From positions 1 through 53,642 of the forward strand of contig JAKSNE010000001.1 in the NCBI GenBank assembly GCA_024400135.1: 53,642 bases of DNA, read 5' to 3'. This document shows positions 6,103 through 41,896 of this stretch, piece after piece. Within the stretch, counting starts at the first letter, position 1. The number at the start of each line of letters is the position of its first letter. The DNA is from Paludibacteraceae bacterium. GTDB taxonomy: Bacteria > Bacteroidota > Bacteroidia > Bacteroidales > Paludibacteraceae. The position numbers were made by a program, and so were the translations under genes. A model generated the notes under the pieces. That model searched no databases. It worked only from the letters and a program-made list of their open reading frames with translations, and was not told the DNA's origin.

Positions 6103-10175
<4,073 letters not shown>

Positions 10176-13178: not shown

Positions 13179-13249
13179 AAACTTATAAACTTATAAACTC
13201 TCAACTACTCTAAACTCTACACTAGCCCAAAGGGCGTCAACTCTAAACT
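13179..13249 (+). repeat. Intergenic heptamer array (CTTATAA/CTCTAAA units) between the USP-like gene and gmk
   Basis: aaacttataaacttataaactctcaactactctaaactctacacta...caactctaaacta ends 3 nt before the gmk ATG. Confidence 0.85.
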
Positions 13250-13252
13250 AAT

Positions 13253-18672: not shown

Positions 18673-18674
18673 AT

Positions 18675-19556: not shown

Positions 19557-19563
19557 AACTATA

Positions 19564-19600
19564 ATCTTTACAACCGATGCCGGTCAATCATAGGCGGGTG
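19564..19600. repeat. Repeat B copy 1 (28-bp identical core plus flanking similarity to 20332-20369)
   Basis: The core accgatgccggtcaatcataggcgggtg occurs at 19573-19600 and 20342-20369. In both copies it sits just 5' of a minus-strand start codon. Confidence 0.9.
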
Positions 19601-19612
19601 TTATTTGTCTTT

Positions 19613-20035: not shown

Positions 20036-20145
20036 TAAAGCAAAAAGATGGGATCGTTTACGATTAAATTACCTTTCCACTCCTTAGCTAACTCCCATAA
20101 AGACTTTCTTTTGGTTTGTCCTTGTTGTACTTCTTTTGTTGCCAT
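20035..20145 (-). CDS. Putative 36-aa antitoxin
   Basis: Below the ORF-track cutoff. Translation is MATKEVQQGQTKRKSLWELAKEWKGNLIVNDPIFLL. Its TAA overlaps the PIN ATG by 1 nt (TAATG), and a consensus promoter lies 28 nt upstream. Confidence 0.5.
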   Translation of the reverse strand: MATKEVQQGQTKRKSLWELAKEWKGNLIVNDPIFLL

Positions 20146-21551: not shown

Positions 21552-21561
21552 AAAGCATAAA

Positions 21562-25459: not shown

Positions 25460-26587
25460 CTATTCCTTCTCCAACAAGATATTCACGAGTTCGAGGTCTT
25501 TGTAGTCCTCTTTAGTTTGGTCATAGAAGCCGAAGTCGGCATCGTAACACCAAGTACACCAAGCCACATTAAAGCGGTTGAAGACCTTAATCATGTCGCG
25601 CGTCCAAGCGTACGCCCATTCGCGATCCACGTTCTCATAAACACCCCACTCGCCGCAGAAGAGTTGCAGACCCAAGGAGTCAGCCACATCGATGGCTTGT
25701 TTCATACGTTGGTAGAGCACTTCCTCGTTCCACTCTTGGTGATAATCAGCTACAGTAGGTTTAACCTCGTCAGGACAAGCGTTCCAGTCCTCATCGGAGA
25801 TGAGTTGACCCGGGTAATGCACATCGCCCGTATAGAAACGTATCGGATTCCACCACGTGTTATAATGGGTCAGCACCATCGGCTCATAGAAATGGAAGGA
25901 GAGGATGATGTTCTTATCATTCTCCGGCACACGCAGGTATTGGAAAGTCCCTACCCCTTGCCAGAGGTTAGAACCGATGACGAGGGTACGTTGGGGTTCC
26001 ACTTCGCGCAAAACTTTGTGAACCTTCGCGATGAGTTGGTTCCATTGTTCGTGCTCGGGAGCAACGGGTTCGTTCATGAATTCGTAAGCCACGGAGTCCA
26101 CGCTGTAATGGCGGAGCACCTCGCTCAACTGATACCACATGTTGATGAGTTGTTGTTGGCTTTCGTCAGAGGTAAAGAGGGTGTTTGCCGACTTGCCGTC
26201 CTCGTTCTCCGCATTGAAATAGTGCGAACGGATGATGTGCAGATCCACTACGACGCGCAGGTGGTGCTTGATGGCGAGGTCGATACCATTAGTGAGTAAG
26301 TCCCATGCTTCGGGCAGTTTATTGCCGTCCTCGTCCCACATCTGTACCTCGTCAATAGGGATACGGACGAAGTCAAAACCAAGGGATTCGAGACGAGCCA
26401 TATCATCCTCTTGGATGTGTTTGGCACGTTCCTCTCCACGTACTTCGGATTGAGAGAGCCAGTGACTGAGGTTCGTTCCACGATGAACCTTGAAGTTGTT
26501 TTCCTTTGGTGTGCAAGCCGTTACCAGCGCGCAGAGCGCTGTTAAAATGATGAATTGATGAATGATGGAATGATGAATTGTTTTCAT
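25460..26587 (-). CDS. Glycoside hydrolase family 5 (endo-beta-1,4-glucanase-like), lipoprotein
   Basis: GFDFVRIPI, the acid/base context YEFMNEP, and FHFYEP. Lipobox LVTAC. Confidence 0.8.
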   Translation of the reverse strand: MKTIHHSIIHQFIILTALCALVTACTPKENNFKVHRGTNLSHWLSQSEVRGEERAKHIQEDDMARLESLGFDFVRIPIDEVQMWDEDGNKLPEAWDLLTNGIDLAIKHHLRVVVDLHIIRSHYFNAENEDGKSANTLFTSDESQQQLINMWYQLSEVLRHYSVDSVAYEFMNEPVAPEHEQWNQLIAKVHKVLREVEPQRTLVIGSNLWQGVGTFQYLRVPENDKNIILSFHFYEPMVLTHYNTWWNPIRFYTGDVHYPGQLISDEDWNACPDEVKPTVADYHQEWNEEVLYQRMKQAIDVADSLGLQLFCGEWGVYENVDREWAYAWTRDMIKVFNRFNVAWCTWCYDADFGFYDQTKEDYKDLELVNILLEKE

Positions 26588-26628
26588 AATGAATAAATTT
26601 AGTGATTTGTGATTTATAGTTGTGATTT
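26546..26628. repeat. AATGATG 7/8-mer array (GH5 signal-peptide codons) plus GTGATTT heptamer array (GH31 stop region)
   Basis: aatgatgaattgatgaatgatggaatgatgaattg (26546-26580) and gtgatttgtgatttatagttgtgattt (26602-26628). Confidence 0.85.
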
Positions 26629-29076
26629 ATTTCTCAGGAAGATGGGACTATGGTCGTAGGGGGCGGGGACGGTGAGGGTCTCGTTGCCGTTGGAGACGAG
26701 TTCACCGGTATAGTAGTCGTACCACGTTCCCGCAGGGAAATAGACGCTCCACTCACGAGCACCATACGTATAGACAGGACAAACCATGATGTCGGGTCCG
26801 AACATATACTGCCATCCGCAGTTGACGGCTTTTGGATCCGTCGGATAATCCATCGCGAGCGGACGCATAAGCGTATAATCCTCCTCGCTGACGCGGCGGT
26901 TCATCTCTTGCAGGTACGGCATCAGTTTATAGCGCTCGTTGAGGCAAGCCACAATCGCCTCGTATGCAGGATGACCTTCGGGAGCGATGTTCCAAGGCTC
27001 ACGATAGGGGAACTGTCCGTGACTACGATAGATAGGCGTGAACACTCCCCATTGGTGCCAACGCACATTGAGTTCGCGCCACTCTTTAAGGTCAGCATTC
27101 TCCTTGCCGGTTGCCTCAAAAGCATACTGCGCCGCAGCGTAACGATTCTCTACGGAGAAACCGCCAATGTCTTGGCTCCACCAAGGAATGCCCGATACGG
27201 AGAAGTTCAGTCCTGCCGTGATCTGCGCTTTCATATCCTCCCAACGCGTACCGATATCACCCGACCAAGTGGCTGTGGAGTAGCGTTGCTGACCAAGGAA
27301 GCCGTTACGGGTGAGTTGGAAGATATCCTGTACGCCTTTGCGTTGGAGTCCTTCGTAGATAGACTGGGCATTAACCAGTGCATAGGCATTGAAATACTCA
27401 TCGGACGAGCCGAGATAGGTAGGACCGCACAAGGCTTTGCGATAGTCGATAGGCGTGCAGTCTTTGATATTCGGTTCGGAAGCGTCCATCCACCACGCGT
27501 CAATACCCATCGTGCCGAGGTGCTCCCATAGTTGTTCGAAGAACAGTTTGCCGGCTTCAGGGTTATAGGCATCATAGAAAGCATACGGGAAACCGAGCCA
27601 GTCGATGAGCGAGTCACGAATGGATTGGGGATAGAGCCAGCCTTTGGCTAACATCTCTTGGTAGTGATCGGTGAACGGATAATACTTAGGCCAGCAAGAG
27701 ATCATGATGTGAGCGTCCAAAGCGTGGATGGTATCAATCATGGCTTGTGGGTTAGGGAAACGAGACTCTTCGAAGGTGAAAGCACCCCATTGCGAAGGCT
27801 CCCAATAGTTCCAGTCCATGACGATATTGTCGATAGGCAGGTTACGCGAACGGAAGCCACGAAGGGCATCCACGATCTCGTCTTGGGTCTTATAGCGTTC
27901 ACGCGACTGCCAATAACCAAGCACCCAATCGGGCATGAGGGTCGCCTTGCCGGTAAGCGTACGATAGGAGTGGATAAGACTATCGAGGTTGTCGCCACCA
28001 AAGACATAGTAGTCGAGGTTCGGATTCATCTCCGACCAGAAACGCAGTTGTTGGTGCTGTTCGGGTGTCTCCGGTGCATGGGCGGTAAGCGAACAATACG
28101 CCACATCGCCATCGGGTTGCCACGTGAGGCGGATACGATAAGCGCGTCCCGCTTCCATGTAATAACGATACTTGCGCTCGTTCGGATTCCAAGCCGTACG
28201 CCAGATAGTCGAACTCAGCGGTTGACCATCAATAAAGAGTTGTTGATAACCCGAATAGTAGTGCAAGAAACGATACTCGCCCGTAGCGCGAGGGGTGATA
28301 GTGCCCTCGTAAACGATGGTAGAAGCCCCTACCCGACCTCCCCCTGTAGGGGAGGAGTATGAGGCAACAGTATCTACTTCGAAGAGCTCCTCCAATGCCT
28401 TATAGGGTTCAGGATTGCCCCAACGGCAGAGACTATAAGTATCAAACATCAGTCCGTAGCCTTCGGTAGAGAAGATAATAGGCAGACTGACTTTGGTATT
28501 ATACTGATAGAGTTCCTCGTCACGCCCCTTCCAGTTCCATTCGTCGGCTTGGTGTTGACCAAGACCAAAGAGTCCTTCCTCGTTGTAGAGGTTATCAAAC
28601 GTGACGGCATACGTCCAACCTTTATAGTTTAGAGTGGAGAGTTTAGAGTTTAGAGTAGTGGAAAGTGTAGAGTTTAGAGGTTGAGGTTGAGTACATTCGT
28701 ATGGTGTAAAACGAGGACTGCCGGCGGTCTCTTTGAGTAACGGCTTACCGTCATGACGAGTAACCCACACTTGACCGGTGGTGCGAAGCACGTAAGCGGT
28801 CATATAAGAGATGGATAAGGCAACGGTGTCGCCGGTATAGTTGAGAGTGGAGAGTTTAGAGTTGAGAGTAGTTTTAGAGTTTAAAGTTACGAGACTCTTG
28901 CGGTCGCGCAGTTGGTCTTCCGCGGTGGAAGTGACACGAATGATGTTATCGTCCACCGCTTGTAGGCGAACAATCTTAGGACCATTCTCGGTGGGGTTAG
29001 TGACGTGAATTGTTACTTCGTTCTTAGCGCACGAGGCGAGCATTAAGACCGCTAACGCAGTTAGAATGTGTTTCAT
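26614..29076 (-). CDS. Glycoside hydrolase family 31 with PA14 insert (alpha-xylosidase/alpha-glucosidase-like), lipoprotein
   Basis: GH31 catalytic-region motifs (IDAWWMDASEP, WSGDI) and a PA14-like segment (TGEYRFLHYYSGYQQLFIDG). The likely start is MKHILTALAVLMLASC at 29076. The ORF extends to 29097. Confidence 0.85.
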   Translation of the reverse strand: MKHILTALAVLMLASCAKNEVTIHVTNPTENGPKIVRLQAVDDNIIRVTSTAEDQLRDRKSLVTLNSKTTLNSKLSTLNYTGDTVALSISYMTAYVLRTTGQVWVTRHDGKPLLKETAGSPRFTPYECTQPQPLNSTLSTTLNSKLSTLNYKGWTYAVTFDNLYNEEGLFGLGQHQADEWNWKGRDEELYQYNTKVSLPIIFSTEGYGLMFDTYSLCRWGNPEPYKALEELFEVDTVASYSSPTGGGRVGASTIVYEGTITPRATGEYRFLHYYSGYQQLFIDGQPLSSTIWRTAWNPNERKYRYYMEAGRAYRIRLTWQPDGDVAYCSLTAHAPETPEQHQQLRFWSEMNPNLDYYVFGGDNLDSLIHSYRTLTGKATLMPDWVLGYWQSRERYKTQDEIVDALRGFRSRNLPIDNIVMDWNYWEPSQWGAFTFEESRFPNPQAMIDTIHALDAHIMISCWPKYYPFTDHYQEMLAKGWLYPQSIRDSLIDWLGFPYAFYDAYNPEAGKLFFEQLWEHLGTMGIDAWWMDASEPNIKDCTPIDYRKALCGPTYLGSSDEYFNAYALVNAQSIYEGLQRKGVQDIFQLTRNGFLGQQRYSTATWSGDIGTRWEDMKAQITAGLNFSVSGIPWWSQDIGGFSVENRYAAAQYAFEATGKENADLKEWRELNVRWHQWGVFTPIYRSHGQFPYREPWNIAPEGHPAYEAIVACLNERYKLMPYLQEMNRRVSEEDYTLMRPLAMDYPTDPKAVNCGWQYMFGPDIMVCPVYTYGAREWSVYFPAGTWYDYYTGELVSNGNETLTVPAPYDHSPIFLRNKSQL
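28325..28356. repeat. Hairpin insert CCTCCCC-CTGTA-GGGGAGG inside GH31
   Basis: It has a perfect 7-bp stem at 28337-28355 and encodes SSPTGGGRVGAS. Confidence 0.8.
28625..28692 (-). repeat. CTCTAAA-type heptamer array inside GH31 (copy 1)
   Basis: Encodes [24 protein letters not shown]. Confidence 0.9.
28839..28888 (-). repeat. CTCTAAA-type heptamer array inside GH31 (copy 2)
   Basis: Encodes [17 protein letters not shown]. Confidence 0.9.
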
Positions 29077-31006
29077 AAATAATTTGTGCATGACCATTGA
29101 AGGCGGGGAGGGTTATTGAATTTTGAATTATGAATTTTGAATTTTGAAGGTGGGCGGTGGGGTTGCCGTTGTGGTAACCTAAGACGCGGACGGGTTGTGC
29201 CCATTCGATTTGAATAGAGTCGCAAGCGGTGGGACAGAAGTGCCCTTTCTTATCAAGCAACGTGATATCCATAATCGTAGTACCGCTATAGGTAACGGTA
29301 TCGAACGTCACTTGCGTAGCGGGTCCGGCGGTATAGACTTTCTCGCGTTTAGCGACACGACCGTTCTTATATCCGATGGCTTCGACCAAACCGGGTTGAT
29401 AGACGGTTTTCCACTCAAGGTGTCCTACTTTAGGCATCGTTTGGCGAGCGAGGCGTTTGCCATTGACGCGCAGTTCGACCTCGTCCATATTCGAATAGAC
29501 CCATACAGCGACGCTATCGCCTTCCTGTCCCTCAAGATTCCAGTGGGGAAGAATATGTAGCACAGGTTTATTGGTCCAAACAGATTGCAGGAAATACGCT
29601 TCGTCTTTCATGAATCCGCATAGGTCGAGTACGCCAAACAGGCTACTGACGGAGGGCCACTGAGCGGGATTAGGTTCGCCTTTGTAGTCAAAACCGGTCC
29701 AATAGAAGATTCCTCGTATCCAGTCGTTAGCAAGCACATTCTGCCAGCCGTGTTCGATGGCATCGTTATAGGTAGCAACGCCTCGCGTACCGCAGCCGGT
29801 GGTTTCTTCCGTCATGACAGCCAGACGATCGGAGAAGGAGTCGTGAAAAGCGGCGAGGTTGTTTTGTTTCATATAGTTGAATCCCGCCACATCAACACCC
29901 CAAACGATATTTGGTCCGGAGGAGGTTGCGACGGTCACGGGTCGGGTGCTATCGAGTTCGTGGCACCACTTAGTCATCGTACGAGCGATACGTTCGCCTG
30001 TCTCGTTCCATTCCAGTCCCCACTCCTCGTTGCCTATGCTCCAAAGGATGATAGAGGGGTGATGTTTATCGCGTTCAATCATCTGCTTGAGGGCTTGATA
30101 GTCTCGCTCGGAAGCGCCCATCAACCTATTCTCGGCAATGACGTATAGTCCGAGGCTGTCACATAAGTCGAGCAAGTCGGGTGCCGCAGGGTTATGGCTC
30201 ATACGGATAGCGTTCACACCGATATCCATGAGTTTGCGAAGGCGATACTCCATCAGTCCTTTCGTGACGGCTATACCGACGCCGCCGTGGTCTTGGTGGA
30301 GGCAGACGCCACGGAGTGGCGAAAGGATCGCCTCCGGCTGAAAGACCGCTGCGCTGTAAGACCGCTGCGCTGAAAGACCGCTCGTTTCACTCGCTGTAAG
30401 ACCCGCTGACGCTCCTTCGGCTGAAGGATTATTGTTGCCTATTGTCAAATAGACGTTGCGGTAGATTCCTGCACCTTCGTAGAACCAGCCTTCTTGGAGA
30501 GATGCATCGACGCGCACACAGATGAGGTTTTCGCCCGCGTGCAGGTAATCGGTCACGGTATAGGTTTGGGTTAGGTATCCGCTTTCGGTGTGTCCCACAT
30601 AGAACCCGTTGACCCACACACGCGCGTCGCGGAAGATCCCCTCAAACACAAGGCGATGAGGGGTGGTATAATCGACCGTATCGAGCGTAACGATCTTGCG
30701 ATACCACCCTACACTATTTTCAGGATAGGCATAACCAATCGTTTGGTAGCCATGGCTATGGCTGGCTTTGGGGTCGTGAGGGAGCGTTGTTGCCCAATCG
30801 TGAGGGACTTGTACCACCTGCCAAGCGGAGTCGTTGAACGAAAGAGTATAAGGTCCCTCGTTATGGATACTGTTCGCTTTGGTAAGGTAGTTAAAATATT
30901 CGGTCCCGCAGCCGAAGTCCTTTGAAGGATCGGCACCGTTACCCAATGCAAAACGCCAATCGGCGTTGAGGTTGAAGACCGTTAGAAAAATGAGTAGCAG
31001 GCGCAT
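29024..31006 (-). CDS. Glycoside hydrolase family 2 (beta-galactosidase-like), apparently lacking the Ig-like domain 2
   Basis: The sugar-binding domain ends at GWFYEGAGIYRNVYLT. TIM-barrel motifs include LRGVCLHQDHGGVG, IRMSHNP and WSIGNEE. At 660 aa it is short for GH2. Confidence 0.7.
   Translation of the reverse strand: MRLLLIFLTVFNLNADWRFALGNGADPSKDFGCGTEYFNYLTKANSIHNEGPYTLSFNDSAWQVVQVPHDWATTLPHDPKASHSHGYQTIGYAYPENSVGWYRKIVTLDTVDYTTPHRLVFEGIFRDARVWVNGFYVGHTESGYLTQTYTVTDYLHAGENLICVRVDASLQEGWFYEGAGIYRNVYLTIGNNNPSAEGASAGLTASETSGLSAQRSYSAAVFQPEAILSPLRGVCLHQDHGGVGIAVTKGLMEYRLRKLMDIGVNAIRMSHNPAAPDLLDLCDSLGLYVIAENRLMGASERDYQALKQMIERDKHHPSIILWSIGNEEWGLEWNETGERIARTMTKWCHELDSTRPVTVATSSGPNIVWGVDVAGFNYMKQNNLAAFHDSFSDRLAVMTEETTGCGTRGVATYNDAIEHGWQNVLANDWIRGIFYWTGFDYKGEPNPAQWPSVSSLFGVLDLCGFMKDEAYFLQSVWTNKPVLHILPHWNLEGQEGDSVAVWVYSNMDEVELRVNGKRLARQTMPKVGHLEWKTVYQPGLVEAIGYKNGRVAKREKVYTAGPATQVTFDTVTYSGTTIMDITLLDKKGHFCPTACDSIQIEWAQPVRVLGYHNGNPTAHLQNSKFIIQNSITLPAFNGHAQIIYETHSNCVSGLNARLVR
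29115..29148. repeat. TTGAATT heptamer array x5 in the GH2 3' region
   Basis: ttgaattttgaattatgaattttgaattttgaagg encodes LQNSKFIIQNS. It lies 18-39 nt upstream of the GH31 start candidates. Confidence 0.85.
30337..30427. repeat. 16-nt tandem repeat CTG(A/T)AAGACCGCTGCG (3 good units plus degenerate units) inside GH2
   Basis: ctgaaagaccgctgcg ctgtaagaccgctgcg ctgaaagaccgctcg... encodes SAEGASAGLTASETSGLSAQRSYSAAVFQP. Confidence 0.85.
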
Positions 31007-31017
31007 AGTTGGCGGGA

Positions 31018-32265
31018 TTAATACGTGAGGCGATAAACGACTACATCGTGAGACGGGATAGTGACTTTGCGCGATTTGTTCGATGGTGCTTCTTCTTTTC
31101 CTGCCCAGATGTTATACACCTTATAATTATGAGAGCCCGTTTCGAAAGTGAGTCGAGAGAGGTTGTCGAACATGTGGAAGTCGGCAAAGTCCAGCGTGAT
31201 GGTGCGAGAGCTGAGGGTGCGGTTGAGGATACAGAATGCCCATGCTCCGGACTGGAGAGGTTTGAGCCAATACTCAAGTCCGGATTCGGTGCGGTATCTG
31301 AGTCCTTGTATGCCTAGCGGGTCTTGGTCGATAGCGATCATGTCTTTATTCATCACGAGAGCTGCCGTAGCGGGAGACATCGAGCGGATATCGTTACCGA
31401 GGATGAGCGGAGCAGCCATCATACACCACATAGAGAAGTGAGCTCTGTCTTCGCTCTCGGTCATACCATTTCCAACCTCCATCATGTCGGGGTCGTTCCA
31501 ATGGTTAGGTCCGGCAAACTGACGCAGTTTCTCGTTCTTGTCCATGATTTGTAGCACGCCGAGTGATTTCCATCCGCCGTGGTCAAGTTCGCAGTCGAAG
31601 CAGCAGTTGACGTCACCGGTGGTACGCCAGAGGTGACCCACATTCTCCGCCCAGCTATAAGCCTGAGTGTCCCCCCATTCGCAGAGCGAGAAGACAATGT
31701 CTCGACCGGAAGCACGCAGGGCTTTTGCCATGAGGGAGTAAGCACCTTTGGAGTTGACATTCTCGGTGTTACACCAGTCATACTTGAGGTAGTCGATACC
31801 CCAGCGAGCATATTGGAGTGCGTCTTGATATTCGTGTCCTAAGCTACCGGGTTTGCCTCCGCAGGTGGCGGAACCGGCATCGGAGTAGATACCTATCTTC
31901 AGTCCTTTGCTATGCACATAGTCTGCGAGGGCTTTCATACCAGAGGGGAAACGGACCGGATCGGGTTGAATGAAACCGTCGGCATCGCGCTCGCCGTGCC
32001 AGCAATCGTCGAGGTTAAGATAGATATATCCGGCATCTTTAAGTCCGGTAGCGACCATCTCGTCGGCCATAGCCTTGATAAGGTCTTCGTTAATGTCGCA
32101 AGCAAACGTGTTCCAAGACGACCAACCCATAGGAGGTGTCGGGCAGAGGAGTGGTTTGGCAGGTATATCTTCAGAGAAGATAACCGGTTGCGGTTGTTGA
32201 GCACTTAGAGGGGTAAATGACAAAGTGCAGAGCACTAATAGAATGATGGATTGATGAGTTTTCAT
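31018..32265 (-). CDS. Alpha-galactosidase, glycoside hydrolase family 27
   Basis: PPMGWSSWNTFACDINE, YIYLNLDDCW and YLKYDWC motifs, plus a signal peptide. Confidence 0.9.
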   Translation of the reverse strand: MKTHQSIILLVLCTLSFTPLSAQQPQPVIFSEDIPAKPLLCPTPPMGWSSWNTFACDINEDLIKAMADEMVATGLKDAGYIYLNLDDCWHGERDADGFIQPDPVRFPSGMKALADYVHSKGLKIGIYSDAGSATCGGKPGSLGHEYQDALQYARWGIDYLKYDWCNTENVNSKGAYSLMAKALRASGRDIVFSLCEWGDTQAYSWAENVGHLWRTTGDVNCCFDCELDHGGWKSLGVLQIMDKNEKLRQFAGPNHWNDPDMMEVGNGMTESEDRAHFSMWCMMAAPLILGNDIRSMSPATAALVMNKDMIAIDQDPLGIQGLRYRTESGLEYWLKPLQSGAWAFCILNRTLSSRTITLDFADFHMFDNLSRLTFETGSHNYKVYNIWAGKEEAPSNKSRKVTIPSHDVVVYRLTY

Positions 32266-33302: not shown

Positions 33303-34771
33303 TGTTTATCAGTTCTAAATGGAACAATCGGTAAATAGCGCATATTGGCAAGGTTGCCTATTTGGAAATTGCGGAAGCAATAACGAACGGCAGCCGGATG
33401 TTCTACACCTTCGGCAGTGAAACGAAGGGCGTGAGGCACATCTTGTATGCCATTGATGATAGCGGGATGTACGTTTCCGTTCTCGTCAATGACTTCAAAG
33501 CCCTTGTAGTCGTGCCAACGCGAGAAACCATCGGCGCAGTTGGTGAAATATACATCAATATGGTTATCCTTCATCTCGTGACGCGCATAACGCGGTGCAT
33601 CGGCATAAACGGTATGGAAGCCATAGTCATGGTTGAGGGCGAGATAAGCGAGGCGTTCGCCTACGACTTGTTTCTGGGCAGGATGGACATTGTCAATCTC
33701 GTAGTCATAGACGAGGTCATTGGTGCTCACGCCTTTGCAGTAAGGTACGCGGTCCTCCAATGCCCATTGTGATTCGCGCAGTTCGGCCGCCCAAGCGGCA
33801 TCGGCATCGCCGTGGCGGAAGGGCGCTATCTCAACGAAATAGAACGGCATCTTATCGTTGTTCCATAGTCCGCGAACATACTTAACGAGCGTCTCCATAC
33901 GGTCGGTATAGGTGTCAGCGTGACCAACGTTCGAGCAACCTTGATACCAAAGCCAGCCTTTAACCGTATAATAATGACAAGGCCAAAGCATACCATCGTG
34001 CATGATGAGCGGACTGAGATAGAGTTGTTTGTCTGCAATCTCTTTCATCGCTTTGTCGGAAAGGTCCACATCCTTGTAAGTGTTGAGGATCTCACGAGGC
34101 AACCAGCCTTCTACGCGGCTACCACCCCAAGAGCAGTTGATGATACCCACCGGAATATCCAGTGCTTGTTGCAATAACTTAGCGAAGAAATAAGCCGTCG
34201 CACCAAAACGAGGAGCATTGAAAGCATTGCACTCGTACCAGCCTCCCGACACATTCTCTTGCGGTGTGGTGGCTTGGATATGGTCGATGATAGCATAGCG
34301 AATCTTACCTGCATATTGACCGGCAAGAGCGATCTCTTTGTTCGCACCTTCGGTAGGACATTGCCAGAAGCCCATGAGGGGCATCTCCATGTTAGATTGT
34401 CCGCTACCGAACCATACCTCACCGATGAGCACGTTATTGACTTGAACGGGATCGGGATTGTAATAAGCGCGTTTAGTAGGCGTCTCTACAAACGTAAGCG
34501 TGTGCTCCGTATAAGAGGCAGCGGGTGTGGCTAAGGTCACAGACCAACGTCCGTCTTTACCTACGGTTGTTTCGGCTTGTTCGCCCCAAGTGGCATAAAC
34601 GGAAACGGTGTTACCCGGAGTAGCCGTACCCCAAAGGTTAACGTTCGTTTGCTGTTGTAACAACATGTTGTCGCAAATAAGCGATGGCAATTCAAGCGCC
34701 ATTACTGTGGACAGAGGACAAAGGACAAGAGACAAAAGACAAAAGAGTGAGAAAAATTTTAAGTGTTTCAT
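33299..34771 (-). CDS. Sialate O-acetylesterase-family (SASA/SGNH-like) carbohydrate acetylesterase
   Basis: GEVWFGSGQSNME has the GQSN nucleotide-free SGNH block, and WYQGCSN is also present. 490 aa with a signal peptide. Confidence 0.7.
   Translation of the reverse strand: MKHLKFFSLFCLLSLVLCPLSTVMALELPSLICDNMLLQQQTNVNLWGTATPGNTVSVYATWGEQAETTVGKDGRWSVTLATPAASYTEHTLTFVETPTKRAYYNPDPVQVNNVLIGEVWFGSGQSNMEMPLMGFWQCPTEGANKEIALAGQYAGKIRYAIIDHIQATTPQENVSGGWYECNAFNAPRFGATAYFFAKLLQQALDIPVGIINCSWGGSRVEGWLPREILNTYKDVDLSDKAMKEIADKQLYLSPLIMHDGMLWPCHYYTVKGWLWYQGCSNVGHADTYTDRMETLVKYVRGLWNNDKMPFYFVEIAPFRHGDADAAWAAELRESQWALEDRVPYCKGVSTNDLVYDYEIDNVHPAQKQVVGERLAYLALNHDYGFHTVYADAPRYARHEMKDNHIDVYFTNCADGFSRWHDYKGFEVIDENGNVHPAIINGIQDVPHALRFTAEGVEHPAAVRYCFRNFQIGNLANMRYLPIVPFRTDKQ
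34709..34752. repeat. GGACAAA-type heptamer array forming the esterase signal-peptide codons
   Basis: ggacagaggacaaaggacaagagacaaaagacaaaagagtgag encodes (on the minus strand) SLFCLLSLVLCPLS. Confidence 0.85.
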
Positions 34772-34783
34772 AAGATTATTAAA

Positions 34784-35911
34784 TTATGAGTTATAAGATA
34801 ATATTTGTAAACATAAACGTGAATTATGATAGGGGCATTTCCAGAAGCCCGCTTTATCTGCCAGACCGCTAACGCTGGCAGACCGCTGCGCTGAAAGATT
34901 GGGATATTCCCACCACTCGCCGTGGTCAAAGTCGATGAAGTATTGTTGGGTTGCTTCCCAACAATGCTCGGCAATGCGTAGGTTCTCTTCGCCTCCGAAA
35001 CGATGGTAGATATTCGTATAACCGATGATGGTCTCGCATTGTTCCCACCAAGTACCTTCCATCAGGCCATTAGGCTGCAAGCCTTCTTTCGCGGCTTGGG
35101 CTACACGACGCACCGTCTCGTCTTCGTTGACACCAATCACCTCGCAGGCTTCATCCAGCAACCACGAGAACTCGATGTCGTGACCGCAAGAGTGCGCTGT
35201 ATTCATAGGTTTCCAATCCATGTCAAAGAATAGACCCAAATGCCCATTCGGCTGAATAATATGCTGTTTGAAGACATCGATGAGGCGTAAGATAGAGTGT
35301 TTAAGTTCCTCCGTAGGCCATACGCGATAGAGGTTCGTATAGGGTTCTAAGATATGCAAGTGCGTGTTTTGAGACTTGGGTGCATTGAGGTCTTTCTCGC
35401 TCAAACGATAGTCCTCGATCTTACTCCAATCGCGCTGCGTAGCCTCTATGTATCCGCCTTGCCTAGGATCCCAAGCGTGCTGCTCAAGGCAGTGGTAAAG
35501 GTCGATGGCGTATGGTAAAACCGTGACGTCTCCCGTCGCGCGGACATACTCCGTTAGCCCATAAATGACAAATCCTAAGGCATAGAACTGTTTACGGTCG
35601 TTGACGGGATTGCCTAAATAATCGAGTTCCCAATACACGCCACCGTATTGGCGATCAATGAAATGCTCTAAGATATAGTTCTTGGCATTCGTGGCTGCCT
35701 CCAAGTATTCCTTATTACCTAACGCGCGATAGGCAGCAGAGAAGGTCCAAAGAATACGACCATAAAGGATGGCTCCCCTATTGGCATTCTGTACAACCGT
35801 CTCGTCTGCGAGCACCTGCCCGTAGAACCCACCGTGTTCCTTATCCTGCAACCGCAGCCAATAAGGTAAGATATTCGTCGTTAAGACTTCTTTAAACTCT
35901 AAACTTTCCAC
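34784..35911 (-). CDS. AGE-superfamily cellobiose/mannobiose 2-epimerase
   Basis: ILPYWLRLQDKEHGGFYG, the NTHLHILEPYTNLY histidine motif, and CGHDIEFSWLL. GTG start 6 nt after the MFS stop. Confidence 0.8.
   Translation of the reverse strand: MESLEFKEVLTTNILPYWLRLQDKEHGGFYGQVLADETVVQNANRGAILYGRILWTFSAAYRALGNKEYLEAATNAKNYILEHFIDRQYGGVYWELDYLGNPVNDRKQFYALGFVIYGLTEYVRATGDVTVLPYAIDLYHCLEQHAWDPRQGGYIEATQRDWSKIEDYRLSEKDLNAPKSQNTHLHILEPYTNLYRVWPTEELKHSILRLIDVFKQHIIQPNGHLGLFFDMDWKPMNTAHSCGHDIEFSWLLDEACEVIGVNEDETVRRVAQAAKEGLQPNGLMEGTWWEQCETIIGYTNIYHRFGGEENLRIAEHCWEATQQYFIDFDHGEWWEYPNLSAQRSASVSGLADKAGFWKCPYHNSRLCLQILSYNS
34858..34896. repeat. Second locus of the 16-nt CTGNNAGACCGCTGCG repeat, inside the epimerase gene
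   Basis: ctgccagaccgctaacg ctggcagaccgctgcg ctgaaag encodes LSAQRSASVSGLADK. Confidence 0.8.
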
Positions 35912-35920
35912 TCTACACTA
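35892..35920. repeat. Heptamer array (antisense orientation) spanning the MFS stop and the epimerase start
   Basis: ttaaactctaaactttccactctacacta. The minus strand reads TAG-tgt-aga-GTG-gaa-agt-tta-gag-ttt-aaa. Confidence 0.8.
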
Positions 35921-37315
35921 CTTTTTAATTGGGAATCGATATACCAGCCAAGCCATGATCAAGGCTATTCCTGCCGGAATCAGCGAGAACAAGCACCAGA
36001 TCATCGTCTGTACTGCCGATTCGTTCGTGATGGTCACAATCGTTTCGCCCGTCAACATATCTTGAGAGGACACTAAACCTGCCCAACCTAATAGAGCTGC
36101 AATGAGCGAACCCGAGATAGCTCCGCCGAGTTTTTGAGCCATCGTACCCGAGGAGAAGATCAATCCCGTAGAAGAAGTTCCGAAAGTCTCTGTAGCATAG
36201 TCTGCCACATCGGCATACATCGACCACAATAGAGGTGAATAAATACCTATACCCATGGAAGTAAGGATAACCACTAAAATCATAAGCCACATATAAGCCG
36301 AATCCATCGGGATGAAGAAGAACATAACCGAAGTCACAACGCAAATAAACGCGGCAATGATAAAGGCTTTACGTTTGCTGCCCACCCATTTCGTGAAGGC
36401 GGGCGAGATACCGCCAAAAATCATACACGTCACCTCACCTATCGCCATAAAGACGGTGAAGTTAATAATGATAGTAGGATCAATGTTCCAATTACCAATG
36501 TGTATTGTTCCTATCCATTCCGATAATCCGGTCAGGAGCACGTCACCACCCAAGCAGTACGTAAACAGATAAGCGGCAACAGCATAACGGAAACCGTTAA
36601 AGAAATTAGTGAATATTCCGGTAGCGGTCAGATAGAGCCAAGGTTTGTTCTTGAACAAATCCACAAACTGCTTAAAGTCATATTTCTCTGCGCGTTTGGG
36701 TTTGATACGCTCCTTGGTCATCAGTCCGCAAAGCATAGTCATCAACGCAGCCAGTCCGCCAAAGACCGCACCGATAACTGCATATTGGTGCGCCTCTGTC
36801 CCGCCAATCCATTTCTGAACGTAGGGGAAGATAAGAAGGGTGATAAAGCCCATCAGATAAGCACCCACCATACGATAAGACGAGAACTGGTTTTTCTCGT
36901 TATCATCATCGGTCATCACACCCAGCAGCGAACCGTAAGGCACATTAACAGCAGTATAAGCCGCCATCATAAGCAGGTAGAACGTATAAGCATAGATGCG
37001 TTTGCCCACGGGACCGAGGTCGGGAGTAAAGAGCAAAAGCGCAAAGATCAATCCGTAAGGGATAGCTCCGAAGATGAGCCACGGACGATACGTACCCCAT
37101 TTGGATTGCGTACGGTCTGCCAGCGAGCCCATCAGCGGGTCAGTCACTACGTCAAACAGACGAGCAATCAACATAAGGATAGCGGCATCCGCAAAACTAA
37201 GTCCGAAAACATTGGTAAAAAACACAGGAAAAGCAATCGACATGATTTTCCACGTGATACCGCCCGCAGCGGCGTCGCCCATTGCATAAGCGAGTTTTTC
37301 TTTAATTGAAGCCAT
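35918..37315 (-). CDS. GPH-family (glycoside-pentoside-hexuronide):cation symporter, MFS superfamily
   Basis: 465 aa with 12 TM segments. N-terminus KLAYAMGDAA... and LADRTQSKWGTYRPW are typical of MelB/GPH transporters. Confidence 0.85.
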   Translation of the reverse strand: MASIKEKLAYAMGDAAAGGITWKIMSIAFPVFFTNVFGLSFADAAILMLIARLFDVVTDPLMGSLADRTQSKWGTYRPWLIFGAIPYGLIFALLLFTPDLGPVGKRIYAYTFYLLMMAAYTAVNVPYGSLLGVMTDDDNEKNQFSSYRMVGAYLMGFITLLIFPYVQKWIGGTEAHQYAVIGAVFGGLAALMTMLCGLMTKERIKPKRAEKYDFKQFVDLFKNKPWLYLTATGIFTNFFNGFRYAVAAYLFTYCLGGDVLLTGLSEWIGTIHIGNWNIDPTIIINFTVFMAIGEVTCMIFGGISPAFTKWVGSKRKAFIIAAFICVVTSVMFFFIPMDSAYMWLMILVVILTSMGIGIYSPLLWSMYADVADYATETFGTSSTGLIFSSGTMAQKLGGAISGSLIAALLGWAGLVSSQDMLTGETIVTITNESAVQTMIWCLFSLIPAGIALIMAWLVYRFPIKK

Positions 37316-37551
37316 ATTATTAGTGATTAGTATTATTGTGTTAATTTTCTTTGGTTGTTTTTATCTCTCACAGATTACACTGATTACACTGATTATTTTT
37401 TATTATTTCCTCCTATTTATTTATTCTCGGATTGTGAGTAAACTCTCATCCATCAAATAAATCAATAGTAGGAGAAGGCTTGCTCCGCTAAACCTTCTGT
37501 GTCTGCTATGCAGCCACAATAAGAGCTTATTAGCGGTTTTATTCCACAGAT

Positions 37552-37592
37552 CCTCTTGTTTCTTGTTTCTTGTTCTTTCTCTTCTGCCTCCG
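37552..37592. repeat. TCTTGTT heptamer array (3 perfect units plus degenerate units)
   Basis: tcttgtttcttgtttcttgttctttctcttctgcc is followed by the GC-rich hairpins ggggc...gcccc and gggg-cgct-cccc. Confidence 0.85.
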
Positions 37593-37647
37593 CTCGTCGG
37601 GGCATTCCGTCGCCCCTTGCCGCGGGGCGCTCCCCTTCGTTGCGAGG

Positions 37648-38022
37648 TTAGTTAATAATTCTAATTACACTTTTTTCATCAAGCGATGTAGCGTTAAAGT
37701 TAATAAGCAGTCCTAACTTCTTGTCTGCTAATCGCAAGTACGATAATAATTGTTTTTTATGTAAATCCGTTAATGTATCAACGGATTTTAGTTCTATAAT
37801 CACTCGATCTTCTACCAATAAATCCATCTTTAGTTCGTTGCCAATCTCGTGACCATTGTATAGTATAGGTATCGCAACCTCTCGTCTCACATTATACCCT
37901 GCATCTAAAAGTTCGTAGTATAGTGCCTTTTGGTACAGGCTCTCTAATAGTCCCGGACCCAAAGTCGCGTGTACCTTAAATGCCGCACCTCGTATCGCGT
38001 ATGTCAACTCATTATCTGTCAT
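37648..38022 (-). CDS. GxxExxY protein (PD-(D/E)XK-like, PDDEXK_3 family)
   Basis: 124 aa. It has the signature GPGLLESLY (GxxExxY) and the nuclease-like core DLLVEDRVIIELK. Confidence 0.85.
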   Translation of the reverse strand: MTDNELTYAIRGAAFKVHATLGPGLLESLYQKALYYELLDAGYNVRREVAIPILYNGHEIGNELKMDLLVEDRVIIELKSVDTLTDLHKKQLLSYLRLADKKLGLLINFNATSLDEKSVIRIIN

Positions 38023-38257
38023 ATTTGTTTCTTTACATCTGTGTAATATATCCCTAATATAATTTATTATTAGTGCCGTTAGGCACGGGATGTGAGTTTA
38101 CGAACATTCCCTTTTTAGTTCTTCTTTTTTGGTAGTGAGAGTTTACTCACAACTAGCGAAAAAAAGAAATAAAAAAATAATAAATTATCAATCTATCTGC
38201 GAAATCTGTGGAATCTGTGAGAGATTCAAATCAAAATTTGTGGTTATTGCTTAGTGA

Positions 38258-39310
38258 CTATTGTAAATCTTTTAGGAACAGTGTCCTTGGGTTATTGTAT
38301 AACTTAATAAAATCTTCTTCGGTTTTGAGACCTTTGGCTGCACCGAAATGCTCTTTATGCCAGTTGCGCCAAGGCAGGAAATAGCACACCTCTTTGCCTT
38401 CGGTCAAGGGCAGGAAGACGCGCGTCCACCAGTCGGCCACGGGTGAGTTCTGGATACCGCACTCACTAATAGTAAAGAGCATATTATGCGCTTGCGCATA
38501 AGCATAAAGGAATTCGATATCCGCCTTAGACTGCGTCACGAAGTCATTCTCCGTGCCCCATTGGTAGGTATCGTAGCCAAGAATATCCACGCGTTCTTTT
38601 TCGGGGAAACGAGACTCTAAATACTCGGTCGTGAAGTTACCATCAAGGTTCGGCGAGCAGCACCAAACGATATTCGTCGGCATACGCTCGTTCATATAGT
38701 CTTGGAACATGTTCCACAAAGCGAGCCATTGTTCGTTGGTGCAGTTCTTCCAGCCCCACCAGAACCACGAACCGTTATACTCGTGCCACGGACGAAGGAT
38801 AAACGGAATAGGTTGACCGTTCTCATCCACTAACGTCTCCAAAAACGTTGCCACATCGTTCATCCACTCTACGAAGAGTTCGTGTTGTTCGCCTCCGGGC
38901 AGGATATTGAGTACGGTCGTAGGATCGCTTACGTCCCAAGCATTGCTGCCGGTACGAGGGTTACGCGGGTGCCACGAGAAGGTGATAATACCGCCGTTCT
39001 TAACATGATTGATTGCTTCCTCGCGCATCCAATCAAAGGGTACGCTATCGAGGTTCTTGTCGTGTTTCTCTTCCAGTCCACCAAGGTCAAAGCCCATCAC
39101 GCCCGGATAGTCTCCCACCAGTTCGTAGGTATCCGAGCGACCTTTCTCCCACTGCCACGTCGTACCGTAGAAGGGGTCGTCTTGGTGACCAAACATGATA
39201 CCTTTTTTACTAAGTTCAGTCATGCGCTCTATCAGCGCCTGTGCCGGAGTAGGTGCTTGACTGCAAGCGGTCAAGACCAATCCTAACAAAATGTAAGTTA
39301 CGTTTTTCAT
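38258..39310 (-). CDS. Glycoside hydrolase family 26 endo-beta-1,4-mannanase, lipoprotein
   Basis: The GH26 signature [14 protein letters not shown] is present. I placed the start at [17 protein letters not shown] (ATG 39310), which forms an ATGA overlap with the GH94 stop. The ORF-track N-terminal extension to 39466 lies inside GH94. Confidence 0.85.
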
Positions 39311-41844
39311 AATATTATTTCTATGGTTTGTTTGCCGGGTTGATAAGCCACTATTGTCGGCTTGTCCGCTTTCTGCTTGTGGTTCGGATTGCGAACGATA
39401 ATCTCGTATTCCGCCTCGCGCCACTTGCGATACACCGTAAAGCCTTCCATATCCGCCGGTAAGCAAGGATCAATGATGAGTTCATTGAACCCGGGTTGGA
39501 TACCTAAGATATATTGCGATACCGTAAGCCAGTTCCAAGCCGCTGTACCCGTGAGCCAAGAGTTCTTGCCTTCGCCCGGTTTGGCAGCATCCTTACCGGC
39601 TACCATCTGACAATAAACGTAGGGCTCAATCTTGTGCAAGTCTTGGTCTTTTATCCATGCAGGAGCAATCTTCGTATAGTGTTCCCAAGCGTCGTTACCA
39701 CGCCCCGCTTTGGCTTCGCCAATGATTACCCACGGATTATTGTGACAGAAGATACCGGCATTCTCTTTGTAGCCTGCCGGATAGGAAGAGATCTCGCCCA
39801 TCTCCACGTGATAGGTTGTGAAAGCAGGATGGTTGAGCACCATGCCGTGAGGGGTATCGAGATAACGTTTGCAACTGTCGAGGGCTTTATCTACAAGTCC
39901 GTCCTCTTTGCCTATTTCCGCCATTGTGCAGAAGCCTTGCGACTCGATGAAGATCTTGCCTTCCTCGTTCTCGTTGGAGCCAATCTTATTGCCGAAGAAA
40001 TCGTAAGCGCGTAAGTACCACTCGCCGTCCCAGCCGTACTGCTTAACGGCTTCAATCATCTTATCTATCTCCTTCTGCGCTCTTACTGCTTCCACTCTCA
40101 ACTTCTCAACTTGTCCTTTGTCCTTTGTCCTTGCTCTTTGTTCTAATAACGAAACATAGTCTCTCCCGCAGAACACGAACAGACCGGCAATCATCAACGA
40201 TTGGGCCTTACTGCCTTCGGTTTTGTTCTCGGTGGTTTGGAAGCTCTCATTCGGGTCCCAACTGAAGCAGTTGAGATTCAGACAGTCGTTCCAGTCGGCA
40301 CGACCGATCAAGGGTAGATGTTGCGGTCCGAGGTTATTGACTACGTGGTCAAAACTGATACGTAGGTGTTCGAGTAGGGTCACTTCCGTTCCGGGTTGGT
40401 TATCGAAAGGCACCATCTCGTCCAAGATCGAGTAGTCGCCCGTCTCTTTGATATAAGCCACCGTACCAAAGATCAGCCACATCGGGTCGTCATTGAATCC
40501 GCCTCCAATATCGTTGTTTCCGCGTTTGGAGAGCGGTTGGTATTGGTGGTAGCAGCCGCCGTCGGAGAACTGTGTAGAAGCAATATCAATGATTCGTTCG
40601 CGGGCACGCTCGGGTATCTGGTGTACAAATCCGACGAGGTCTTGGTTACTATCGCGGAAGCCCATACCACGACCGATACCACTCTCAAAGAACGAGGCGG
40701 AACGGCTGAAGCAGAACGTGATCATACATTGGTATTGGTTCCAGATGTTCACCATACGGTTGAGGCGTTCGTCCTTACTCTCGACCGTAAACGTACTGAG
40801 CAATCCGTCCCAAAGCGTGCGGAGCTCAGCAAAAGCCTTATCCACCGCTTCCACGGTAGCGAAACGCTCAATAAGCTCGTGAGCGCGCGCCTTATTAACT
40901 AAGGTCACGTCGCTATCTTGAGAACTAATCAGTTCGCCTTTGCGTTTACGCTCGATATCGGCAGCACAGAACTTGTTATCTTGCTCGTTCTCTACATATC
41001 CGAGCAGGAAGATAAGGTCTTGGCTCTCGCCGGGTTGAAGAGTCAGTTCCACGTAGTGAGACGCAATCGGACTCCAACCATGAGCCACGGACATAGACGG
41101 CTTGCCGTTCATCACGCATTGCGGATTGCTAAAGTCGTTGTATAAACCGATAAACGACTCGCGGTCGGTATCGAACCCCTCCGCCTTGCGGTTGGCAAGC
41201 GCATAGAAAGCGTAGTGATTCCGCCTCTCCTTATATTCGGTCTTATGGTATATACTAGTGAACCCTACTCCTCTACCCTCTACTCCCCTACTCCCATTTT
41301 CAACTTCAATCTCCCCCGTGGACCAGTTGCGTTGGAAGTTCTCCATATCCGTCGAGGCATTCCAAAGGCACCATTCGGCAAAGCTAAAGATCTTCAGATT
41401 CTTGACTTGCGAATCGTGATTGGTGAGGGTCAGTTTATGCACTTCTGCCCACGTATGCAAGGGTACAAAAGTGAGCAAGGAAGCCTCTACCCCATTCTTC
41501 GTTCCCGTGATGCGGGTATAGTTCAAGCCGTGGCGGCACTCATAACTATCGAGCGGGGTCTTACATGGTTTCCATCCGGGATTCCAAACCATGTCGCCAT
41601 CCTTGATATAGAAATATCGACCGCCGGCATCCATCGGCACGCCGTTATAACGATAGCGGGTGATACGGCGGAACTTAGCGTCCTTACAGAAGGTGTAACC
41701 ACCGGCTGTATTGGATATCAGTCCGAAGAAATCTTCGTTACCAAGGTAGTTTATCCACGGGAAAGGGGTTGCAGGATTAGTTATCACATACTCCCTGTTC
41801 TTATCATCAAAAAAACCATATTCTTTCATATCAAAAACTTTCAA
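39307..41844 (-). CDS. Glycoside hydrolase family 94 phosphorylase (cellobiose phosphorylase-like)
   Basis: N-terminus [62 protein letters not shown] closely resembles known cellobiose phosphorylases. 845 aa. Confidence 0.9.
40091..40146. repeat. Composite heptamer array (ACTCTCA units plus TTGTCCT x3) inside GH94
   Basis: tccactctcaacttctcaacttgtcctttgtcctttgtccttgctctttgttc encodes [18 protein letters not shown]. Confidence 0.85.
41263..41295. repeat. CCTCTAC-type heptamer array inside GH94
   Basis: ccctactcctctaccctctactcccctactccc encodes [11 protein letters not shown]. Confidence 0.8.
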
Positions 41845-41896
41845 CTATAAACTATTAAACTAATCGGCTTCTCTAAACTCTAAACTCTAAACTATT
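41838..41896 (+). repeat. Intergenic heptamer array between GH94 and GH5, including 3 pure CTCTAAA units
   Basis: ctttcaactataaactattaaacta...ctctaaactctaaactctaaacta. The pure units are at 41871-41893. Confidence 0.9.

Follow-up and report, generated by a model that had tools for sequence, protein, structure and literature searches.

Tandem arrays of 7-nt units are a known feature of bacterial genomes. In the passages of PMC4679880 and PMC4692102 that cite Mrázek 2007, heptanucleotide repeats are described as the most abundant class of long simple sequence repeats (SSRs) in most surveyed genomes, with lineage-specific units and a sporadic distribution that includes Burkholderia, Xanthomonas, cyanobacteria and actinobacteria. 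The same passages give the idea, proposed for the 7-nt register, of slippage governed by the footprint of the polymerase, and according to PMC4679880 the long SSRs in coding regions of the Mrázek survey were mainly multiples of three. Here, we describe heptanucleotide arrays in a 53.6-kb stretch of DNA from a gut Paludibacteraceae bacterium (contig JAKSNE010000001.1, positions 1 to 53,642; hereafter the window), in which housekeeping genes are followed by a polysaccharide utilization locus (PUL). We found that these arrays belong to the known heptanucleotide-repeat excess. As in the Mrázek long SSRs, at least as those passages present them, the units are 5-11 nt long, period 7 is dominant, the phylogenetic distribution is sporadic, the density is higher between genes and an origin by slippage has been proposed. 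In contrast to those repeats, 64% of the arrays are located in open reading frames (ORFs), where they are translated despite a unit length that is not divisible by 3; the units are largely composed of three letters, and the gut Paludibacteraceae lineage does not appear in the cited passages. What sets them apart is the host lineage, the unit composition, the vocabulary that each genome uses at fixed sites and, most of all, the large-scale in-frame occupation of coding sequence.

Several described repeat families were compared with the arrays. PMC4692102 cites three tandemly repeated heptanucleotides in Calothrix PCC 7601. As in the short tandemly repeated repetitive (STRR) sequences of cyanobacteria, several heptamer families are present per genome as dispersed, lineage-specific tandem arrays. 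The Calothrix heptanucleotides are reportedly the STRR families of Mazel et al. 1990, and their units are said to be the four-letter sequences CCCCAGT, TTGGTCA and CAACAGT. The arrays described here differ from STRR sequences, which were described as mainly intergenic, in phylum and in unit (CTCTAAA, ATTGAAG, TGATTGG); their units are not those of STRR1-3, and the host is one of the Paludibacteraceae. The GGGAATC repeats of Xanthomonas and the GGGGA(T/C)T repeats of Nostoc resemble the present arrays in lying between the same genes in relatives with variable length and sequence, and within a class they occur in a single genus; they are G-rich, quadruplex-capable and 7-11% intragenic, whereas the arrays here are G+C-poor and mostly intragenic (PMC4692102). 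TAACTGA repeats were found in marine Beggiatoaceae, some cyanobacteria and five Bacteroidetes, including Paludibacter propionicigenes with a few copies (PMC4679880). They share with our arrays the position of heptamers just before start codons, a stop codon in the forward unit that limits coding use and a patchy distribution, but that case has one dominant unit, with 2-6 copies per set in the Guaymas genome, whereas many units are found here (PMC4679880). In contrast to the TAACTGA case, stop-containing units persist here in ORFs through frame-specific mutation. Similar consequences are known from the tandem repeats of Borgs, which are pervasive, fast-evolving, independently arising, absent from close relatives and a source of new low-complexity or disordered protein segments (PMC9879509). 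Borg repeats belong to archaeal-element hosts, and the likeness is one of effect and not of unit length. Borg units within ORFs are reportedly divisible by three and much longer. Our literature searches revealed no description of such arrays in Paludibacteraceae.

Repeats in the window were listed with Tandem Repeats Finder (TRF) at a low threshold, which returned 49 rows with period 7 the commonest, and a second scan scored diagonal matches at periods 2-24 with order-3 Markov shuffles as the control. The diagonal scan revealed 13 period-7 arrays at a score of at least 9 (0.2 expected) and 11 at a score of at least 11 (0.0 expected), while all other periods from 2 to 24 gave 0-5 arrays each. 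Tandem 5-11 nt units longer than chance, as in the heptanucleotide class of long SSRs, are therefore present (13 versus 0.2). Period 7 was also dominant in the sampled loci of the ingroup, which comprises the window and seven congeners (L001-L006 and L009; gut Paludibacteraceae metagenome-assembled genomes (MAGs) with 80-92% identity to an esterase query): in 199 kb, TRF found 80 arrays of period 7 and 5, 26 and 14 arrays of periods 6, 8 and 9, respectively. Arrays account for 1.25% of ingroup bases; they have a median length of approximately 4 units, are internally heterogeneous and have a mean unit G+C content of 0.35. The array observation is real and statistically strong.

These results bear on an original prediction made from the window alone, which listed tandem arrays of unrelated sequence but common 7-nt period, placed them at gene junctions and signal peptides of the PUL, and proposed a generating process with a fixed register instead of one mobile sequence. 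The period spectrum has the excess at 7 over neighbouring periods on which that proposal depended; the excess is specific to period 7, involves many different units and is restricted to particular lineages. The named arrays were all present, at the positions given for them or a few bases away, as judged by TRF and sequence inspection, with some corrections of detail. The AATGATG array (26546-26580) mixes 7- and 8-nt units and is not of uniform period 7, and TRF assigns period 8 to GGCAGAA (24539-24574) and CCTCTAC (41265-41294). The three perfect TCTTGTT units occupy 37554-37574, without the extension to 37592. The TTGAATT array, assigned to the 3' end of the glycoside hydrolase (GH) family 2 gene and the region upstream of GH31, lies inside the GH2 coding sequence, as the sequence encoding PAFNGHAQ follows it. 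The gene labelled recQ (23128-24798) encodes a RecQ-family helicase with a TIGR00614 score above the cutoff. Proximity to gene boundaries was also borne out: eight of the 21 period-7/8 arrays in the window are no more than 40 nt away from a start or stop codon (2.2 expected, P=0.002), and seven of the 21 are intergenic (1.4 expected). The arrays are not confined to the PUL, as they also occur in LigA, DapA and YicC and upstream of gmk, between 8.8 and 21.6 kb. Nor are they limited to the interval of the original prediction: further CTCTAAA-family arrays lie at 8869, 10759, 12732, 13197, 21315 and 35896.

To describe the distribution of the arrays, we compared sampled loci, not whole genomes, amounting to approximately 250 kb per lineage. 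An identical copy of the esterase protein was found only in assembly GCA_024500545.1, which places the window in gut Paludibacteraceae. The ingroup density was 0.40 period-7 arrays per kb by TRF. In the sister group (L007, L008 and L010, with 55-58% identity to the esterase query), no period-7 array was detected by TRF in 58 kb, and 48 more distant loci fetched with the same query contained 22 in 776 kb (0.028 per kb). A LigA search added eight loci around ligA (L200-L207), of which L200 and L201 are the housekeeping regions of two ingroup genomes, L201 belonging to the same genome as L001. Arrays were present in L200, L201, L202, L206 and L207, and L203-L205 contained none. Three of these array-rich lineages are at 72-75% LigA identity, each with units of its own: L202 (AAATCTC), L206 (TAATTTG, CAATGYA) and L207 (TAATGCA). 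The trait is thus patchy across the wider family, among lineages at about that level of LigA identity. We also observed that the arrays of L206 and L207 that were placed on gene maps are mostly intergenic, and that four-letter units such as TAATGCA and CAATGCA are more frequent in L202, L206 and L207 than in the clade of the window.

Comparison of orthologous sites revealed that the arrays are dynamic: sites are common to several species, while the unit, the copy number and the presence of an array differ. At the esterase signal-peptide site, the unit is GGACAAA in the window and L001, GTGGATA in L002, AGTTGAA in L004 and AGTGGAA in L006, and L005 contains no repeat. The site in the GH2 tail has five unit families over six species, including TTGAATT in the window (4.7 copies) and L005 (8 copies), ATTGAAG in L002, TGATTGG in L004 and TAGTGTT in L009. 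In GH94, site A is empty in L009 and in L007 of the sister clade, and site B is empty in L006, L009 and the sister clade, with ACTCTxx units in L002 and L004 and CTTTCxA units in L005. Where these two sites are occupied, the insertions are 7-25 residues long and have common borders with differing cores. A related strain with an empty GH94 site A was present in the source sample, as indicated by a contig that joins 41250 to 41318. The same arrays are therefore not fixed in all relatives, the other outcome that the original prediction had set against itself. Units often match their conserved flanks: GAAGTTGAA lies beside AGTTGAG at GH94 site A, TTGAAGrTGGG beside ATTGAAG in the GH2 tail and TATAGTTGTGATTT beside GTGATTT at the GH31 stop codon. 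These matches agree with the prediction of birth by local duplication.

We found that 51 of the 80 ingroup arrays (64%) have their midpoint within an ORF. The density is 8-fold higher between genes (2.2 per kb) than in ORFs (0.27 per kb), but the exclusion of non-triplet units from coding sequence that is expected of heptanucleotide long SSRs was not observed. Arrays are translated in LigA, DapA, YicC, GH31, GH94, GH2 and several signal peptides. In coding CTCTAAA-family arrays, TAA was found in none of the 17 units in which it would be in frame (replaced by TCC in 9, TCA in 6, TAC in 1 and TCT in 1), whereas out-of-frame TAA was kept in 25 of 46 units. Among coding arrays, 48 have a G-poor and 13 a C-poor sense strand, in contrast to 15 and 17 among the intergenic arrays, and in the G-poor orientation TAA is the sole possible stop codon. 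Length differences in the GH2 tail between species are 0, +21, +27, +30 and +33 nt, all multiples of 3, and the orthologous ORFs are all intact. Taken together, the lower density in ORFs, stop avoidance, orientation bias, length constraint and intact ORFs show that the arrays are translated. They also show that tolerance alone suffices to account for why arrays cluster at junctions, signal peptides and linkers. Purifying selection by itself would leave this pattern, and no special targeting is needed.

The units themselves proved to be less independent than had been supposed: their composition is common and their family membership overlaps, so that they cannot be called sequence-unrelated. Of 79 ingroup arrays, 27 belong to the AGAGTKK (CTCTAAA) family as defined here, and 40 have units that differ from CTCTAAA at no more than two positions; the family thus makes up about a third to half of the units, depending on how loosely it is drawn. 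Three-letter units, with C absent from one strand, account for 69 of 89 (78%) where 37.8 are expected given the G+C count of each unit. Low G+C content was rejected as the cause, since the excess persists under this conditioning. Most of the three-letter excess comes from the CTCTAAA family, and the other positive lineages show it less strongly (8 of 15); the longest C-free or G-free stretches of the window are array blocks. Units also recur within genomes. Identical units at different sites of the same genome formed 29 pairs (16.9 expected, P=0.005), and units within one mismatch formed 71 pairs (51.5 expected, P=0.004). Examples of such favoured units are TAATGCA in L207, TAATTTG in L206, ATTGAAG and TGGTGTT in the genome of L001 and L201, and CTCTAAA in the window. 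This genome-specific reuse points to a sequence-dependent component, either the copying of sequence from one locus to another or a bias toward particular units.

Metagenome run data were examined as Logan contigs, a form in which rare variants drop out. In four gut metagenomes, the contig depth over the TTTAGAG blocks of GH31 was approximately 100 times that of their flanks, which were heterogeneous in sequence, and very many TTTAGAG-type arrays must therefore be present per community. Exact CTCTAAA x3 was found in 21 IMG/VR viral contigs (30-60% G+C) and in at least 120 metagenome contigs (together 30-65% G+C), and contigs with CTCTAAA arrays tend to carry other heptamer arrays as well. A phage link through the 21 viral contigs was rejected, as these are heterogeneous and show nothing specific to the host of the window. 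Additionally, CTCTAAA intergrades with CCCTAAA telomere-type arrays in the metagenome contigs L087, L102, L121, L142, L148, L152 and L153; these contigs presumably derive from the chromosome ends of eukaryotes and have no relation to the bacterial arrays, and some metagenome matches are true CCCTAAA telomere-like arrays from other organisms.

We consider it probable that heptanucleotide microsatellites, or long SSRs, proliferated in one gut Paludibacteraceae lineage, and independently or patchily in a few neighbours, under slippage, exchange and selection. An array would originate from slipped-strand mispairing, during replication or repair, that duplicates a local 7-mer. Units are then, as the species comparison shows, quickly gained, lost and replaced, and sequence exchange with arrays elsewhere in the genome, for which the evidence is statistical, may give each genome its own preferred units. 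A selection filter, shown by the coding data, leaves arrays to accumulate between genes and in tolerant coding segments such as signal peptides, linkers and surface loops, in which they are read as low-complexity peptides of 7-residue period. Slippage as the step that generates arrays and the exchange between loci are inferred, and we saw no evidence of any function of the arrays themselves. The process with one fixed register envisaged by the original prediction agrees with the period, the variety of units, the restriction to lineages and the turnover; the independence of the units that it assumed does not hold.

Several points weigh against this account. Simple slippage leaves without explanation the switching of a site to a dissimilar unit, a 16-nt repeat at a heptamer site and the avoidance of C on one strand in 78% of units. 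No +/-7 indels at high likeness were found in contigs of related samples, although contigs lose rare variants, and for that reason ongoing slippage is deduced from between-species comparison alone. The vocabulary test (29 versus 16.9) involves small numbers and sites that are related by descent and not independent. Two sister-clade GH2 sequences conserve FLVDGKKVELRGV, a segment that arrays overwrite, which suggests drive rather than passive tolerance. Nor does the account give a reason for the register of 7, for which the polymerase-footprint effect on slippage is the only published idea. A templated or recombinational activity that writes or copies repeats in a 7-nt register with a genome-specific unit, overwriting tolerant stretches of genes as a molecular drive, is unlikely in our estimation; if it exists, it would continually create low-complexity protein segments and intercistronic spacers.

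Other explanations were weighed against the same observations. A dedicated lineage-specific enzyme, such as a telomerase-like reverse transcriptase, a primase-polymerase or a repeat-specific recombinase, would produce a fixed register with genome-specific units because its template or recognition sequence would differ by genome. The constant register with variable units, the patchy trait across related lineages, the replacement of unit families at a fixed site and the preference of each genome for its own units at unrelated sites all suit such an enzyme, and it is this vocabulary that keeps the idea alive; CTCTAAA also lies one base from the telomere unit CCCTAAA, with intergradation in some metagenome contigs. 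We nevertheless judge it distinctly improbable. Neither the window nor the approximately 190 kb of inspected congener loci encodes a reverse transcriptase, a primase or an unusual polymerase. Many arrays match the conserved sequence that flanks them, as local birth predicts; the arrays are short (median approximately 4 units) and heterogeneous inside, and they have no conserved flanking sequences in common and no target-site duplications. As candidate generators within the window, LigA, RuvC, the RecQ-family helicase, a NERD nuclease, an EEP-family (endonuclease/exonuclease/phosphatase) protein and the GxxExxY protein were considered, and none could be tied to the trait with the available data. 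Quite unlikely, too, is that the arrays are functional elements, whether three-letter unstructured spacers for Shine-Dalgarno-independent initiation, sites for nucleic-acid-binding proteins or +/-7 contingency loci for PUL genes. In favour of such a role, arrays are enriched near starts and stops (within 40 nt) and in the 5' regions of genes for secreted enzymes; the three-letter composition precludes G-C pairing within an array, the TAACTGA repeats before Beggiatoaceae start codons have been suggested to act in a similar way (PMC4679880), and some arrays are perfect, such as GGACAAA x4 in L001 and AGTTGAA x4 in L004. Against this stands the conservation of sites but not of sequences, with certain species lacking an array at a given junction, and no Rfam covariance model matched at its gathering threshold anywhere in the window. 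Upstream of starts, the sense strand is G-poor in 12 and C-poor in 10 arrays, and with no preference of orientation a G-less translational leader was dropped as a general explanation. Arrays are present within ligA and dapA, which are expected to be essential, and switching these genes off should therefore be lethal. No frameshifted allele was found among 8 genomes, where length differences are multiples of 3; copy-number alleles that shift the frame, the hallmark of a phase-variable contingency locus, were thus not observed, the ORFs being intact. As for the long perfect tracts that such loci have in the 5' coding or promoter region of surface or secreted-protein genes, some arrays lie in signal peptides and a few are perfect with 3-4 units; most are interrupted and of short length, and cytoplasmic housekeeping genes hold many of the arrays.

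The CTCTAAA arrays could also be copies of one small mobile element resembling a miniature inverted-repeat transposable element (MITE) or a repetitive extragenic palindromic (REP) element, with the other arrays as decayed derivatives. This family forms a third to half of the arrays, is very abundant in the source metagenomes, occurs as exact CTCTAAA x3 in the 21 viral and at least 120 metagenome contigs, and ends in the same variant unit, ACTAT, at several unrelated sites. However, when flanks of CTCTAAA-family arrays from 8 genomes and 80 metagenome loci were aligned by eye, flanks at different sites had nothing in common, as only orthologous groups matched, and there were no terminal repeats and no target duplications; the terminal sequences, inverted repeats and target-site duplications of MITE or REP elements are thus absent. 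The ACTAT end at GH31 site 2 aligns, in a protein alignment only, with ITYNGW in the array-free L009, so the unit may be old flanking sequence, and the period recurs in other lineages with units that are quite different. A mobile element is therefore very improbable. That the window and its relatives are MAGs might raise the suspicion of an assembly or binning artefact, but the same sites hold arrays in MAGs from independent studies and assemblers, reading frames are kept through the arrays and stop avoidance is frame-specific; this explanation is effectively refuted. Apart from the genome-specific vocabulary, none of these alternatives has positive evidence beyond what proliferation by slippage, exchange and selection explains, and the arrays are not claimed as a demonstrated new molecular machine.

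Three further repeat systems were excluded. The arrays are not telomere-type repeats (CCCTAAA variants), as they are internal, with 3-8 units, inside ORFs and not at the ends of a linear replicon. They are not CRISPR arrays, as the 7-nt units abut directly without spacers. No reverse-transcriptase domain was detected among the scanned ORFs of the window, and a diversity-generating retroelement was rejected; the variation between A and C at two unit positions results from stop avoidance and does not represent the adenine-specific changes of such elements.

The genes of the window were assigned by Pfam and NCBIfam scans of its ORFs, and the coordinates of the arrays are given in the table below. 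The PUL lies on the minus strand at 25.4-53.6 kb and contains, in order, GH5, GH31 with a PA14 insert, GH2, GH27, a GH2-like protein, an SASA esterase, an epimerase, an MFS transporter, a GxxExxY protein, GH26, GH94, GH5, a TIG-domain protein, SGBP-B, SusD and SusC. To its left are the housekeeping genes ruvC, ligA, dapA, cstA, gmk and yicC and the RecQ-family helicase gene.

Tandem arrays of the window, with their location, the state of the same site in relatives or in structural homologues, and the basis of the call
Position	Array	Location and product	Same site elsewhere	Basis
8869..8898	CTCTAAA x4.3	inside ligA; linker between OB fold and zinc finger	equal length and ungapped alignment to E. 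coli LigA 2owo linker; congeners differ in linker	TRF, Pfam domains
10439..10454	AATCAAC x2.3	inside dapA, residues 88-93	CAATCAG x4.6 in L200, CAATCTT x4.6 in L201, AAATCTC x4.7 in L202	TRF
10723..10800	78-nt G-free block, CTCTAAA-family units	inside dapA; 16-residue insertion, ...NFKLSTNKLNNYSKLSTLNSTLK	insertion is relative to DHDPS 3pb2	TRF; G-free scan
12732..12765	ACTCTAC x4.9	inside 201-aa ORF (12573-13178) downstream of cstA		TRF
13175..13252	nearly all heptamer/octamer units: TTATAAAC x3, ACTCTAAACT x2, AACTCTAAACT	spacer up to gmk start		TRF
21315..21347	AGAGTKK x4.7 (sense strand ACTCTAA...), in 63-nt C-free block	inside yicC		TRF
21549..21567	CATAAAG x2.7	spanning yicC start codon		TRF
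24539..24574	AGGCAGAA x4.5, period 8	RecQ-family helicase, C-terminal region		TRF
26546..26580	AATGATG/AATTGATG units	GH5 signal-peptide n-region (MKTIHHSIIHQFII)	non-repeat or other sequence in congeners	TRF
26597..26628	GTGATTT units	over GH31 stop codon and spacer to GH5 start	(AATTWTG)x8 in L005; array-free in L001, L003, L009	TRF
28320..28360	octamer-family block and inverse (CCTCCCC...GGGGAGG)	inside GH31; encodes SSPTGGGRVGAS	GGGGAGTA x4 in L002, TGGTGTT x3 in L001	
28621..28693	73-nt C-free block, TTTAGAG-family units	GH31 site 2, translated as 20 aa		TRF
28834..28889	56-nt C-free block, TTTAGAG/AGTTGAG units	GH31 site 1, translated as 17 aa	GTGCATC x4 in L009	TRF
29116..29148	TTGAATT x4.7	GH2 C-terminal domain, 40 nt upstream of GH31 start	see text	TRF
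30337..30382	16-nt repeat GCTGAAAGACCGCTGC x2.9	inside GH2, residues 209-224	AGTTGAG heptamers in L004, L005, L009; FLVDGKKVELRGVNLHQDH in two sister-clade GH2 sequences	TRF
32242..32258	AATGATG-like units	GH27 signal-peptide start (MKTHQSII)		
34709..34752	GGACAAA x5	hydrophobic core of esterase signal peptide	see text	TRF
35886..35930	CTCTAAA-family units	MFS stop / epimerase start junction	kept with variants in L001, L002, L005, L006, L009	
37554..37574	TCTTGTT x3, perfect	intergenic, within GxxExxY gene cassette		TRF
39354..39380	TTGTCCGC x3.5, period 8	near GH94 3' end		TRF
40096..40146	TCTCAACT x2 then TTGTCCT x3	GH94 site B, residues 567-578	insertion relative to sister clade; see text	TRF
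41261..41317	CTACTCCT/CCTCTAC units	GH94 site A, residues 184-194	12-residue insertion versus L009 and L007; see text	TRF
41835..41897	nearly all heptamers: ACTTTCA ACTATAA ACTATTA ... CTCTAAA x3 ACTATTA	GH5 stop-GH94 start spacer		TRF

Some peptides encoded by array sequence recur at unrelated places. The peptide GLSA(Q/K)RS(Y/F)S is present in GH2 of the window, in the LigA linker of the congener P0010 and in GH2 of L005, and the repeat family of GCTGAAAGACCGCTGC is therefore dispersed too. SPTGGGR(V/E)GA was found in both GH31 of the window and GH94 of L004. We also observed tiny G+C-rich hairpins of the form GCCC-N3-4-GGGC inside heptamer arrays of relatives, namely at 12916-12928 in L201 and at the GH2/GH31 junction in L003 and L009, where in-frame read-through gives SPSGV.

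Additional features of the window were noted. At 29024-29097, the GH2 coding sequence passes the GH31 start codon with an overlap of approximately 50-70 nt, and the GH2 tail is real coding sequence because the conserved motif PAFNGHAQ is present. The match of the RecQ-family helicase to the RecQ equivalog model is limited to the helicase core (model positions 2-356 of 591) and falls below the cutoff of that model; the C-terminal region holds the octamer array. The region 14400-20100 is a low-G+C island (0.35-0.41 versus approximately 0.47) that encodes Glf, a GT2 glycosyltransferase, GtrA, a RhuM-family protein and a PIN-domain protein; heptamer arrays are few there, and the island may have been acquired recently. 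A cassette of approximately 941 nt (37318-38258) carries the GxxExxY/PDDEXK_3 gene (37648-38022) and has imperfect inverted repeats at its edges (37358-37393 versus 38195-38230). It is missing from all seven congeners, in which the junction consists of a heptamer array or a few bases, and contigs of two related samples link 37317 directly to 38259. The depth at its ends is 5-8 times that of the flanks, and the cassette therefore looks like a small multi-copy mobile cassette.

The heptanucleotide excess has been known since 2007 with no mechanism established, and this lineage offers a tractable natural system for asking why the register is seven. Array-rich and array-free relatives are syntenic, so that empty, occupied and replaced states can be compared at one site, and the arrays lie inside well-understood enzymes (LigA, DapA, GH31, GH94 and GH2), in which their cost and turnover are measurable. 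The arrays break assemblies, with depth spikes of approximately 100-fold, which is relevant to the annotation and assembly of gut Bacteroidales MAGs. For the organisms themselves, our results indicate that non-triplet units can colonise coding sequence at scale, rewriting signal peptides and loops as peptides of 7-residue period, and the arrays are thus relevant to the speed at which PUL proteins diverge.

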